Shown here in pieces: positions 1,372-3,326 of a stretch of 64,000 nucleotides of DNA; the stretch's first letter is position 1; every line of letters begins with the position of its first letter. This stretch comes from Thermoanaerobaculia bacterium (GTDB taxonomy: Bacteria > Acidobacteriota > Thermoanaerobaculia > Multivoradales > J023), in the NCBI GenBank assembly GCA_036397835.1, contig DASWIG010000794.1, positions 9,698 through 73,697 of the forward strand. Reading direction: 5' to 3'. The notes under the pieces were generated by a model. That model searched no databases. It was not told where the DNA came from and worked only from the letters and a program-made list of their open reading frames with translations. Position numbers and translations under genes: made by a program.

Positions 1372-2583
1372 CTACTGGCATTGGCTGAGACGCTGGTGCT
1401 CGTCCGCCACCTGGTTGATGATGGCGTCGGTGGGACACTGGATCAGGCACGCCTGGCAACCCTCGCAGAGATCTGGATTCGAGAAGATCATCTTCTTGTT
1501 CTCAGTCGGCGAAAAACACTCCACCGGGCAAACGTGATCACACAAATTGCAGCCGATGCAGTCCTCTTCGATGATCTCCAGCTTCAGGTGAGGGAAGCCG
1601 TAGAAGAGGGTCGAGTAGCCGCATTGCCAGAGCGGGGTGTAGCTCGGGTAAGAGGTCCCCACCAGATAGGAGCCGAGCAGCAGCATCAAGACCCATTGCA
1701 AAGAGAACAGGCCCAACCCGCCGCCGAGCAGCCAGCCGTCGGCGCCGAGGATCAGGGCGGTGCCGGGGAGGAAGAAGCCGACTCCCGCCTTCTGGACGAA
1801 GGTCTTGCCCGGGATCACGAAACACCCCAGGCTGATCGCCACCGCCATCACGGCCAACCCGCCGATGAACCAGGGTGCCACCGCCAAACCGAAGACCAGT
1901 ACCGGGAAGAGGGTGTAGCGCAGCGCCAGACTTCCCCACATGGCGACCGCCATCTCAAGGCGTTCGCGGACGGTGAAGGTGACCCGCATCATCTTCTCGG
2001 TTCGCCGCCGGGAGTGCAGGTACTCGGGTATGTCGGCGATGTCCACCGGGCCGAAGACCGCCGACCAGCCGGTTCGCCGACGAACCTCGAAGAGGTTCAG
2101 ACCATTGGCGCACAGTTGCGGCAGGATCAGCCGCCGGTGGTCGACCATTTCGGCGATGCGGCTGGTCTTGAGGATCGAGATGATGCTGTCGATGTTGAAG
2201 CGCTGCCCCCCCGCCGCGCACCACACGTCGATGCCGCTCGCTGGCGCCACGAGCAGGTAGCAGTCGGTACCTTCGAGGGCGCGGCACACCCGGCGCACGG
2301 TGAGGTCGTAGTTGGTGGTCACCAGCACCGGCGAGCGGCGATCCGCGTTGCCGAAGACGATCAACCGTGGGCGGGTGGGGTACGGCGCCGAGCGGAAGAC
2401 GGTCTGAAAGATCCGCTTCGGCAGACTCCTGATCCGTGGCCACAGTCCCGTCCGTGGCCGGTAGCGCTCCGCCCGCAGCAGCGGGTCGTCGCGGCGGCCG
2501 GTGGGCTCGGCGCGCACGGTCTCGTCCGCTCGCGCCTGCCGCTCCGTTTGAGGGAGGGTGATCTCTCTCGCAGCCAAACTCAT
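1372..2583 (-). CDS. Fused HgcA-like corrinoid domain, transmembrane domain and HgcB-like 2x[4Fe-4S] ferredoxin (HgcAB-like fusion protein)
   Basis: Track ORF of 403 aa. The corrinoid block is 'LLVAPASGIDVWCAAGGQRFNIDSI..DHRRLILPQLCANG..EVRRRTGWSAVFGPVDIADIPEYL' (compare the HgcA cap helix N[VI]WCA[AG]GK). It is followed by about 4-5 hydrophobic helices, then CIGCNLCDHVCP and CEGCQACLIQCP. The ATG overlaps the stop of the upstream methyltransferase (ATGA at 2580-2583). Confidence 0.8.
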   Translation of the reverse strand: MSLAAREITLPQTERQARADETVRAEPTGRRDDPLLRAERYRPRTGLWPRIRSLPKRIFQTVFRSAPYPTRPRLIVFGNADRRSPVLVTTNYDLTVRRVCRALEGTDCYLLVAPASGIDVWCAAGGQRFNIDSIISILKTSRIAEMVDHRRLILPQLCANGLNLFEVRRRTGWSAVFGPVDIADIPEYLHSRRRTEKMMRVTFTVRERLEMAVAMWGSLALRYTLFPVLVFGLAVAPWFIGGLAVMAVAISLGCFVIPGKTFVQKAGVGFFLPGTALILGADGWLLGGGLGLFSLQWVLMLLLGSYLVGTSYPSYTPLWQCGYSTLFYGFPHLKLEIIEEDCIGCNLCDHVCPVECFSPTENKKMIFSNPDLCEGCQACLIQCPTDAIINQVADEHQRLSQCQ

Positions 2584-3326
2584 GACGTCGCCTCCGCAGC
2601 CAGCAGTTGCAGGCTTCCGCCCAGGAACTTCTCCACGCCGACGACCTGGAACCCCGCGCGCTCGAGACGCTCGTCGAGCCGCTCCAGGGGATGGGTCAGG
2701 GGCGGAGCCACCACGAAAGCGAGGAGCATCAGGGGGAATTCGATCACGAAGTACAGGACCTTGAGCAGGGGATTGGCCTTCTTCAGCTCCACCGCCTGCA
2801 GCCCCAAGTAGGTCACCAGGCGGGCGGCGTGGCGGTAGAGGCGGTAGACGAGACGGCGCCAGAAGCTGTCGGGCTCAGCCTCGTCGGCCAGGATCAGTCG
2901 GCCCCTCGACCGCAGCACTCGCCGGCACTGGGGCAACAAGCAGTCAATCTCGTCGTCGGTCATTTCGGAGAGCGCCAGCACGCTCACCACCCGATCGAAG
3001 CTTCCGGGCTCGAACTCGTCTTCGACCTGCAGAGCGTGGAGCTTGCGTACCTCGGCCTGCCCGTCGAGCTGCGCCAGATGGTCTCGCGCGGCCTCCACCA
3101 TCGGTCCCGCAGTGTCGATCCCCACCACGCGCGCCCCCCGTGCGGCCATCTGCCGCAGCAGGAAGCCCGTGCCGCAGCCGATCTCCAGCACGTCCGTCCC
3201 CGGCTCCACCAGCCGCTCGACGATCCGCTCGCGGATCTCCGCCAGCCTGCCGAGGGTCAAGATCTGCATCCCGCGGTCGAAGCGCCGCGGCGACTCTTCG
3301 AAGATCTTCATCAGCACAAAAGCCAT
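2580..3326 (-). CDS. Class I SAM-dependent methyltransferase with a C-terminal hydrophobic helix insertion
   Basis: Track ORF of 248 aa. Motif I is 'VLEIGCGTGFL'. There is a hydrophobic stretch 'LLKVLYFVIEFPLMLLAFVVAPP'. An SD-like GGGAG lies 8 nt upstream of the ATG at 3326. It is translationally coupled to the HgcAB-like gene. Confidence 0.85.
   Translation of the reverse strand: MAFVLMKIFEESPRRFDRGMQILTLGRLAEIRERIVERLVEPGTDVLEIGCGTGFLLRQMAARGARVVGIDTAGPMVEAARDHLAQLDGQAEVRKLHALQVEDEFEPGSFDRVVSVLALSEMTDDEIDCLLPQCRRVLRSRGRLILADEAEPDSFWRRLVYRLYRHAARLVTYLGLQAVELKKANPLLKVLYFVIEFPLMLLAFVVAPPLTHPLERLDERLERAGFQVVGVEKFLGGSLQLLAAEATS

Follow-up and report, generated by a model that had tools for sequence, protein, structure and literature searches.

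The stretch of DNA analyzed here, hereafter the window, is a 64,000-nucleotide segment (positions 9,698 to 73,697) of contig DASWIG010000794.1 from a Thermoanaerobaculia bacterium of the phylum Acidobacteriota. Near its start, on the minus strand, two overlapping genes encode a class I S-adenosylmethionine (SAM)-dependent methyltransferase, CpaM (2580..3326, 248 aa), recognized by the NF043040 and Pfam Methyltransf_25 profiles, and a HgcAB-like fusion protein (1372..2583, 403 aa), recognized by the NCBIfam model NF043039 and by AlphaFold2 and Foldseek. This pair and its likely role are the subject of the present work. The ATG of the fusion gene and the stop codon of the CpaM gene share the sequence ATGA at 2580..2583, as stated in the original prediction, a short account of the locus drawn up from its sequence; the junction, read directly, is ...ACG TCA TGA with ATG AGT TTG. 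That the fusion gene is real is indicated by a third-position GC of 0.86 in its reading frame, by 333 homologues with E<=1e-10, and by its matches to the CdhD and Fer4 families of Pfam and to NCBIfam.

The unit as a whole reads, in order, methyltransferase, corrinoid domain with the cap residue Cys122, four membrane helices, and 2x[4Fe-4S] ferredoxin. The corrinoid-binding, Rossmann-like domain of the fusion comprises residues ~56-190 (2014..2418, minus strand), as delimited by Pfam CdhD and by superposition on the corrinoid iron-sulfur protein (CFeSP). It includes the cap motif GIDVWCAAG, at residues 117-125 (2209..2235), in which Cys122 is encoded by 2218..2220. The membrane domain (residues ~205-315; 1639..1971, minus strand) is defined by the helices of the structural model, by hydropathy and by invariant alignment columns; the helices span residues 205-231, 233-253, 262-286 and 292-315 in the AlphaFold2 model, and hydropathy agrees on four membrane segments. 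On the 3' side of this domain is an invariant linker motif, PLWQCGYS, with Cys321 at 1621..1623. The HgcB-like 2x[4Fe-4S] ferredoxin domain (residues ~335-390; 1414..1581, minus strand) is assigned from matches to Pfam Fer4 families and from two CxxCxxCxxxCP motifs, CIGCNLCDHVCP at residues 342-353 and CEGCQACLIQCP at residues 373-384. Lastly, Cys402, near the C-terminus (1378..1380), is nearly invariant in the family. The open reading frames (ORFs), the motif scan and the model thus agree with the three-part chain originally proposed, and set its four or five hydrophobic helices at four; the peptide blocks cited in that proposal were all located in the sequence.

The AlphaFold2 model of the fusion has a predicted local distance difference test score (pLDDT) of 85.2 and a predicted template-modelling score (pTM) of 0.81. 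A Foldseek search with this model returned the published HgcAB model 9a0b_A as the top match, with an E value of 9e-10. The next matches were the corrinoid domains of CFeSP, which superpose with a root-mean-square deviation of 2.2-2.4 A across ~130 residues. Because the number of predicted membrane helices is even, the corrinoid and ferredoxin domains would be placed on the same side of the membrane, as is needed for electron transfer within a fusion; we infer this arrangement from the model.

The assignment to a family follows from the scores of the curated profiles. On NF043039, named 'HgcAB-like fusion protein', the fusion scores 329.1 bits against a cut-off of 285, with residues 56-388 aligned to profile positions 2-349 of 350. 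It falls below the cut-off of the HgcA model NF040863 (162.2 versus 275 bits), of the HgcB model NF040864 (39.5 versus 99 bits) and of the CFeSP large-subunit model NF003195 (73.7 versus 306 bits). The Pfam CdhD match (PF03599, 49 bits) covers only profile positions 265-386 of 387, i.e., the C-terminal third, and there is no match to the N-terminal Fe-S and TIM-barrel part that would mark a CFeSP large subunit. When the family profile is compared with CFeSP, GidvWC is paired with GTSVLT, so that Cys122 falls on Thr374. A MAFFT alignment gives the same result: Cys122 occupies the column of the cap Cys of 24 canonical HgcA sequences (the Cys93 equivalent) and of Thr374 of CFeSP. The corrinoid-domain match and the alignment of the Cys with the HgcA cap, on which the original prediction depended, were thus both found.

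The canonical hgcA set was assembled from metagenome genes fetched by the pattern NVWCAAGKG, and all of its complete ORFs (54/54) are unfused. The cap motif of the window protein departs from the HgcA motif of the Hg-MATE criteria, N[VI]WC[AS][AG]GK, in that it reads DVWCAAGG, with Asn replaced by Asp and Lys by Gly. These two replacements had been reported for the locus together with the retained Cys, and all three are seen. The Asp is, however, a trait of the subclade to which the window protein belongs, and other members of the family keep the Asn. In a neighbor-joining tree rooted on CFeSP, in which the fused set was limited to relatives of at least 42% identity, the fused relatives and canonical HgcA form separate clades, each in 100/100 bootstraps, and the window protein is in the fused clade. 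Its identity is 24% to canonical HgcA and 59% to fused relatives. Taken together, these data support the classification of the protein as HgcA/HgcB-like rather than as a true HgcAB, in line with the original prediction. By sequence, the fusion and CpaM also belong to a kind that is already catalogued, in that both genes have curated NCBIfam models.

CpaM scores 244.4 bits on NF043040, 'corrinoid protein-associated methyltransferase CpaM', whose cut-off is 180, and 69 bits on Pfam Methyltransf_25. Its SAM motif, VLEIGCGTG, is encoded at 3165..3191; a hydrophobic helix kept throughout the family lies at 2703..2759, and a 31-aa insert that marks the subclade at 2760..2852. Across 75 aligned CpaM sequences, the SAM-binding motifs and the hydrophobic helix are conserved, and the sole conserved Cys is that of the GCGTG SAM motif. 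With no conserved Cys elsewhere, CpaM has no metal site of the ArsM type, which fits cobalt, and not a metal substrate, as the target of the methyl group. A sequence search of the PDB with CpaM returned generic methyltransferases only. In our literature search, no paper described CpaM as a partner of HgcAB-like fusions, the term 'CpaM' gave unrelated acronyms only, and the pairing is recorded solely in the NCBIfam name.

The association of CpaM with the fusion was assessed in a scan for relatives limited to one genome per species, in which 386 were found and 80 loci were kept, from more than 15 phyla including Heimdallarchaeota. By ORF-level BLAST, the CpaM gene is directly upstream of the fusion gene, on the same strand, at 75 of the 77 evaluable loci. 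The three non-evaluable loci are cut by contig ends, and two loci (L025 and L028) are truly without CpaM. In addition, triple fusions of ~634 aa from Acidobacteriota, in which CpaM, the HgcA-like part and the ferredoxin form one chain, account for many of the nearest homologues of the window protein (72-76% identity). A second type of fusion is found in Anaerolineales (L037, L042, L043, L059, L066 and L068), where CpaM is joined to the HgcA-like part and the ferredoxin gene, of ~83 aa, is separate. Judging from these sequences, the fusion of CpaM to the corrinoid protein arose independently, in two separate lineages. One Thermoanaerobaculales contig (L018) carries tandem CpaM/HgcAB-like pairs, at 607..2495 and 3861..5581. 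At 80 canonical hgcA loci, there was only one weak CpaM-like match, of 42 bits, although many of these contigs are short and the test is therefore weak.

True HgcAB has been proven to take its methyl group from SAM (PMC11588087), and this group reaches cobalt without a separate methyltransferase (Zheng 2024). For the fused family, the nearly universal pairing with CpaM and the two types of fusion support a route from SAM to CpaM, then to cobalt, and then to the acceptor. That is, the best-supported reading is that CpaM would load the methyl group of SAM onto the Co(I) of the corrinoid domain. The earlier idea of a SAM-fed corrinoid methyl-transfer module thus gains comparative support.

Two further genes on the same strand follow the fusion gene, as had been noted. 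The first (1066..1272, minus strand) encodes a conserved small protein of 68 aa, which has no match in Pfam or NCBIfam and is defined by its homologues in related loci. It features the motifs RPxVVxxIAxWWQ..L and EVxxxFxCSEEEALRG..GE and one conserved Cys. The possibility that this ORF is an artefact of high GC content was rejected, as conserved homologues were found. The protein family is rare, with 10 representatives at E<=1e-3 among 1.84 billion proteins. The second gene encodes a radical SAM protein (1..897, minus strand; CKHLCRHC at 229..252), which is cut by the window start, such that 299 of its 496 codons, encoding the N-terminal part, are within the window.

Taken in full from the same contig (L001 11687..13177), the radical SAM gene reaches 601 bits on NF040546, the model for a 'CUAEP/CCAEP-tail radical SAM (seleno)protein', whose cut-off is 500. 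Beyond the window start (L001 13130..13215), the sequence encodes ...EPWYC, an in-frame UGA, and then AEPTEEQVALM up to a second stop. The same layout, ...EPW(Y/F)C-UGA followed in frame by AEPxxEQ... up to a second stop, is present in 8/8 loci (L001, L005 and L010-L015), and in all eight a hairpin, GAGCAGGTTGCTC, lies ~17 nt 3' of the UGA. From this conserved arrangement, the UGA is identified as a selenocysteine codon with an element resembling a selenocysteine insertion sequence (SECIS). Gene callers cut the protein short at this UGA. On the ArsL model NF040542, the radical SAM protein scores 295.9 bits, below the cut-off of 450, with nearly the whole ArsL model aligned, and its tail is CUAEP, not RCCLKC. 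ArsL is thus, by profile score, its nearest characterized relative. ArsL splits SAM into 5'-methylthioadenosine (MTA) plus a 3-amino-3-carboxypropyl radical; its C-terminal RCCLKC binds As(III), on which the enzyme makes a C-As bond (10.1101/2024.02.01.577332; 10.64898/2026.04.29.721666). In the linked radical SAM protein, a soft metal(loid) is probably bound by the C-terminal Cys-Sec pair. A PDB sequence search with this protein gave a marginal match to AprD4 only, and no paper found in our literature search reports a function for the CUAEP family.

The neighborhood of the fusion gene differs between the family as a whole and the window's own subclade. Family-wide, CpaM and the fusion are the only conserved pair. 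As for other recurrent neighbors among the 80 loci, 29 have an upstream TetR regulator, 16 an ABC ATPase and 11 two small membrane proteins with Cys-Cys motifs, while ArsR, P-type ATPase and DsbD-like proteins are found in 5 loci each. We defined an Acidobacteriota-type subclade of 11 unique loci whose fusions have at least 46% identity to that of the window. Here the CUAEP radical SAM gene is present at 11/11 loci, on the same strand and within 5 kb, and the small 68-aa-type protein at 8/11, usually directly 3' of the fusion gene. The four-gene neighborhood put forward originally is thus conserved in this subclade, but across the family only the CpaM-fusion pair is. The subclade is further characterized by a 55-residue N-terminal extension of the fusion, by the 31-aa insert in CpaM and by frequent fusion to CpaM, in addition to the linked selenoprotein and small protein.

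The remaining recurrent genes of the subclade are NRPS (non-ribosomal peptide synthetase) or PKS-NRPS (polyketide synthase-NRPS) genes of varied architecture (6/11 loci), DUF169 (5/11), a SaoD/DsrE-family protein together with a NifU_N-like protein (3/11), a MerB-family protein (2/11; the window and L095) and MerT (2/11; L005 and L095). L095 also has MerR, two HMA proteins and a trio resembling MtnB, MtnC and MtnD, and its MerB gene lies between two NRPS genes. The trio fits the salvage of MTA to methionine, as a hint from this single locus. Orthology between the MerB-like protein of the window and that of L095 was ruled out, as they show 35% identity over 48 residues. The genes for a SaoD/DsrE-family protein (NF040913, 179 bits) and for the NifU_N-like protein, which has a Cys-rich N-terminal stretch, adjoin the cassette outside the window (L001 13285..14075, minus strand), and also in L010 and L013. 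They provide a link to the SAO system of Haft and Gwadz.

The radical SAM gene had been proposed to supply reductive activation for the corrinoid. The data do not support that role: the protein is a CUAEP-tail selenoprotein related to ArsL, and its family is far larger than that of the fusion and usually found in other neighborhoods. Indeed, the CUAEP family has 8000 or more matches. Its usual context consists of the radical SAM gene, DUF169, an ATP-grasp or acetyltransferase gene, an ornithine/diaminopimelate (Orn/DAP) decarboxylase gene and MerT, with MerR further along (L090-L092, ~7000..14000), which suggests that the usual operon encodes a metal-responsive small-molecule pathway. These observations also bear on the possibility that the radical SAM gene merely neighbors the CpaM/fusion pair and has no pathway in common with it, the pair working alone as it does in most of the family. 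The usual absence of HgcAB-like genes around the radical SAM family is what one would expect in that case, as is the variation in gene order, the radical SAM gene being upstream at most loci and downstream in the window. Against it, the radical SAM gene stays on the same strand and within 5 kb at every locus of the subclade despite these rearrangements, and the small protein accompanies it at most of them; chance adjacency therefore appears to us improbable.

The rest of the window is occupied in large part by a hybrid PKS-NRPS assembly line (10584..43840, minus strand), identified from Pfam domains and the ORF map. It consists of an AT-DH-ACP protein followed by NRPS genes of 2082, 4827 and 3313 aa, the last of which ends in a thioesterase, and comprises about nine NRPS modules and one nitroreductase-type oxidase domain. 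A FAAL-ACP-KS gene lies at 51158..55270 (minus strand). On the 3' side of the PKS-NRPS genes, and on the same strand, are a 368-aa PDZ-like gene, a 501-aa His-rich gene, a MerB-like gene and a gene for a transporter of the major facilitator superfamily (MFS). The MerB-like gene (7237..7908, minus strand, 223 aa) is the second-to-last of the NRPS operon and encodes an organometal lyase-like protein of the MerB family. It scores 99.6 bits on Pfam MerB, and 67.8 bits on the NCBIfam MerB model, whose cut-off is 200. When it is aligned to MerB2 (5c17), its residues Cys107, Asp110 and Cys171 fall on active-site positions; the triad of MerB is Cys96/Asp99/Cys159. The adjacent efflux-type transporter (5928..7211, minus strand, 427 aa) scores 99 bits on Pfam MFS_1 and 194 bits, under the cut-off, on TIGR00900. 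The 501-aa protein (7949..9454, minus strand), predicted to be co-transcribed with the MerB-like gene, has the appearance of a secreted protein, contains the His-rich sequence HHMHHGM, has no family match, and may bind metal.

Between the transporter gene and the CpaM operon is a second, large radical SAM gene, on the opposite strand and distinct from the one linked to the fusion. This gene (3874..5877, plus strand, 667 aa; Pfam Radical_SAM and B12-binding) encodes a B12-binding protein related to the C-methyltransferase KedN5, with 322 bits on NF033712 against a cut-off of 700. It is divergent from the CpaM operon, from which it is separated by a 547-bp spacer. The G+C content of this stretch is 0.56, compared with ~0.66 elsewhere, and the gene was found in no related locus; thus it may be a recent acquisition. 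Elsewhere in the window are genes for a 961-aa protein (47961..50846, plus strand), whose C-terminal half contains a radical SAM domain, and for a 686-aa protein (57351..59411, plus strand), which has a C-terminal class I methyltransferase domain. Rfam searches of the whole window at the gathering threshold, and of 3250..3950 at E<=1, gave no match, and so no cobalamin or SAM riboswitch. There are no tRNA genes in the window, and hence no tRNA-Sec. A promoter and terminator scan of 800..4000 gave nothing informative.

This setting raises the question of whether the CpaM/fusion pair is simply a tailoring or building-block methyltransferase of a PKS-NRPS pathway, acting on a C, S or N atom in some organic intermediate, without participation of a metal(loid). 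The window does contain a 45-kb hybrid PKS-NRPS cluster, with the KedN5-like protein and the MFS exporter adjacent; NRPS genes, of differing architectures, also adjoin the cassette at the other loci counted above, and, in the family at large, TetR and ABC transporters are repeatedly found nearby. Yet ~70 of the 80 family loci lack NRPS genes. Moreover, the fusion has features of the HgcAB type, namely a Cys-ligated corrinoid, a membrane domain and the invariant residues Cys321 and Cys402, and the partners of the MerB-family, MerT, MerR and ArsL-like kinds point to carbon-metal(loid) chemistry. We thus consider an exclusively organic acceptor unlikely.

The MerB-like, MerT, MerR and HMA genes that recur in the subclade invite another possibility, namely that the fusion and CpaM are a true mercury methylase, which converts Hg(II) to methylmercury, with the MerB-like lyase and the MFS pump protecting the cell. 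The conserved and aligned cap Cys and the HgcA-like fold are as expected for such an enzyme, and the family of the linked radical SAM protein usually has MerT and MerR among its neighbors. The sequence nevertheless falls short of the HgcA cut-off by more than 100 bits, in a clade separate from HgcA, and lacks the Asn and Lys of the cap motif and the C-terminal Cys-Cys pair of HgcB. Furthermore, the original prediction stated that fused forms tested so far did not methylate mercury. This agrees with work cited in PMC10087281 and PMC10083202, according to which the fused forms tested yielded no methylmercury. Those forms come from other lineages, which counts in favor of a mercury methylase here; even so, we give it little credence.

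The likeness of the linked radical SAM protein to ArsL (296 bits) likewise suggests a role in anaerobic methylation of As or Sb via methylcobalamin chemistry, either replacing ArsM or beside it. In L041 a genuine ArsM (355 bits on NF008823) is encoded directly 3' of the fusion, and ArsR-type regulators are found in 5 loci. The presence of ArsM beside the fusion, however, speaks against redundancy of the two, and arsB/acr3 and arsC were not seen in the window or the subclade loci. As(III) is a nucleophile, and is methylated directly by the CH3+ of SAM; a corrinoid would not be needed. On balance, As or Sb as the native substrate seems to us hardly probable.

We instead interpret the pair at 3326..1372 (minus strand), with moderate confidence, as a SAM-dependent corrinoid methyl-transfer unit of the HgcAB-like/CpaM type, whose likeliest job in the subclade is to methylate a metal(loid) center, or an organometal(loid) amino acid that the ArsL-like enzyme would produce. 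In the proposed mechanism, the ferredoxin domain would reduce the cobalt to Co(I), CpaM would pass the methyl group of SAM to Co(I), and the thiolate of Cys122 would bind the lower face of the resulting CH3-Co(III). At the membrane face, the methyl group would then move to a thiol-binding acceptor held by the conserved residues Cys321 and Cys402. Our best guess is that this acceptor is a thiol-binding metal(loid) species. In the subclade, it may be tied to the substrate or the product of the ArsL-like selenoprotein, by analogy with the synthesis of arsinothricin, where ArsL acts first and then ArsM.

Several observations weigh against this interpretation. The region of the cap in the AlphaFold2 model (residues 121-130) has a pLDDT of ~64, i.e., only moderate confidence, and the model was built without the cofactor. 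The C-terminal Cys-Cys pair, which is essential in HgcB, is reduced to one Cys, Cys402. In culture tests, fused forms yielded no methylmercury. The radical SAM gene is lacking at ~70 of the 80 family loci, and the commoner TetR (29 loci) and ABC transporter (16 loci) neighbors would also fit an organic substrate. Within the subclade, the adjacency of NRPS genes at 6/11 loci fits natural-product tailoring equally well, and the methionine-salvage trio occurs in one locus only.

The link to the ArsL-like enzyme, the small protein and the recurring NRPS, MerB, MerT and MerR genes suggest a more specific version of this interpretation, a pathway to methylated organometal(loid) compounds, which we advance only tentatively. 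The operon of CpaM, the HgcAB-like fusion, the small protein and the CUAEP radical SAM protein would build a methylated organometal(loid) amino acid, and several Acidobacteriota would feed this product to an NRPS or PKS-NRPS to yield an organometal(loid) peptide (cf. bialaphos and arsinothricin). The ArsL-like enzyme would transfer SAM's 3-amino-3-carboxypropyl group onto a metal(loid) bound at its Cys-Sec tail, and the corrinoid unit would subsequently methylate that center; MerB-like lyases and exporters would serve for self-protection.

Fused HgcAB-like genes routinely turn up in mercury-methylation surveys, where they are set aside because tested carriers make no methylmercury. What is added here is, first, that a SAM methyltransferase is their almost obligatory and sometimes fused partner, and is essentially lacking at canonical hgcA loci; second, that the window's subclade is tied to an ArsL-like selenoprotein; and third, that this subclade has MerB-like lyases, MerT/MerR and NRPS genes as recurring neighbors. 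In our literature search, we found no description of the tie between this cassette and a Cys-Sec-tailed ArsL-like enzyme, a rare small protein, and recurring NRPS, MerB-family, MerT and MerR genes. Together, the methyltransferase partner, the ArsL-like tie and the Mer and NRPS neighbors leave thiol-binding metal(loid) or organometal(loid) species as the narrower field in which to look for the acceptor, and define a small set of genes for co-expression. If the organometal(loid) pathway is true, one branch of the fused HgcAB paralogues would be given a first function, and its products would be natural products of a new class.

One of the known systems closest to the window pair is HgcA/HgcB of Pseudodesulfovibrio mercurii ND132 (Parks 2013, Zheng 2024). 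The two share the column of the cap Cys, a membrane domain and a 2x[4Fe-4S] ferredoxin, and SAM is likely where the methyl group ultimately comes from in both. They differ in that the window protein is one chain rather than two, with DVWCAAGG instead of N[VI]WCA[AG]GK, a single C-terminal Cys instead of Cys-Cys, and four predicted membrane helices whereas HgcA has five, in addition to the low identity and separate clade described above; moreover, a class I methyltransferase is an obligate neighbor of the fused family, and is essentially absent from canonical hgcA loci. The fused HgcAB paralogues of Pyrococcus furiosus, Methanococcoides methylutens and Kosmotoga pacifica belong to the same curated family, NF043039, and have the same architecture. 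The window protein is set apart from them by its place in the Acidobacteriota-type subclade, with its own extension, CpaM insert, linked radical SAM protein and small protein. With the CFeSP large subunit (AcsC/CdhE; PDB 2h9a, 2ycl, 4djd), the fold of the C-terminal corrinoid domain is shared, at ~30% identity over 130 residues. The window protein, however, is without the N-terminal [4Fe-4S] and TIM-barrel domains, has Cys in place of Thr374, and is membrane-anchored; its methyl source would be a SAM methyltransferase, whereas CFeSP uses methyl-tetrahydrofolate with MeTr.

The cassette may also be likened to ArsL and ArsM of the arsinothricin pathway, since in both a radical SAM protein with a C-terminal, thiol-type tail for a putative metal(loid) is encoded beside a methyl-transfer step. 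Here, however, the tail is Cys-Sec (CUAEP) and not RCCLKC, the score is under the ArsL cut-off, and the partner is a corrinoid protein instead of ArsM. Finally, this locus and the selenocysteine-assisted organometallic (SAO) system of Haft and Gwadz both feature CU-motif selenoprotein chemistry, a MerB-like lyase and a SaoD/DsrE-family protein, whose gene here lies just beyond the window. In contrast to that system, the SaoA, SaoB, SaoC, SaoE, SaoP and SaoT genes are not present here, and the MerB-like protein, which contains no selenocysteine, does not reach the cut-off of SaoL.

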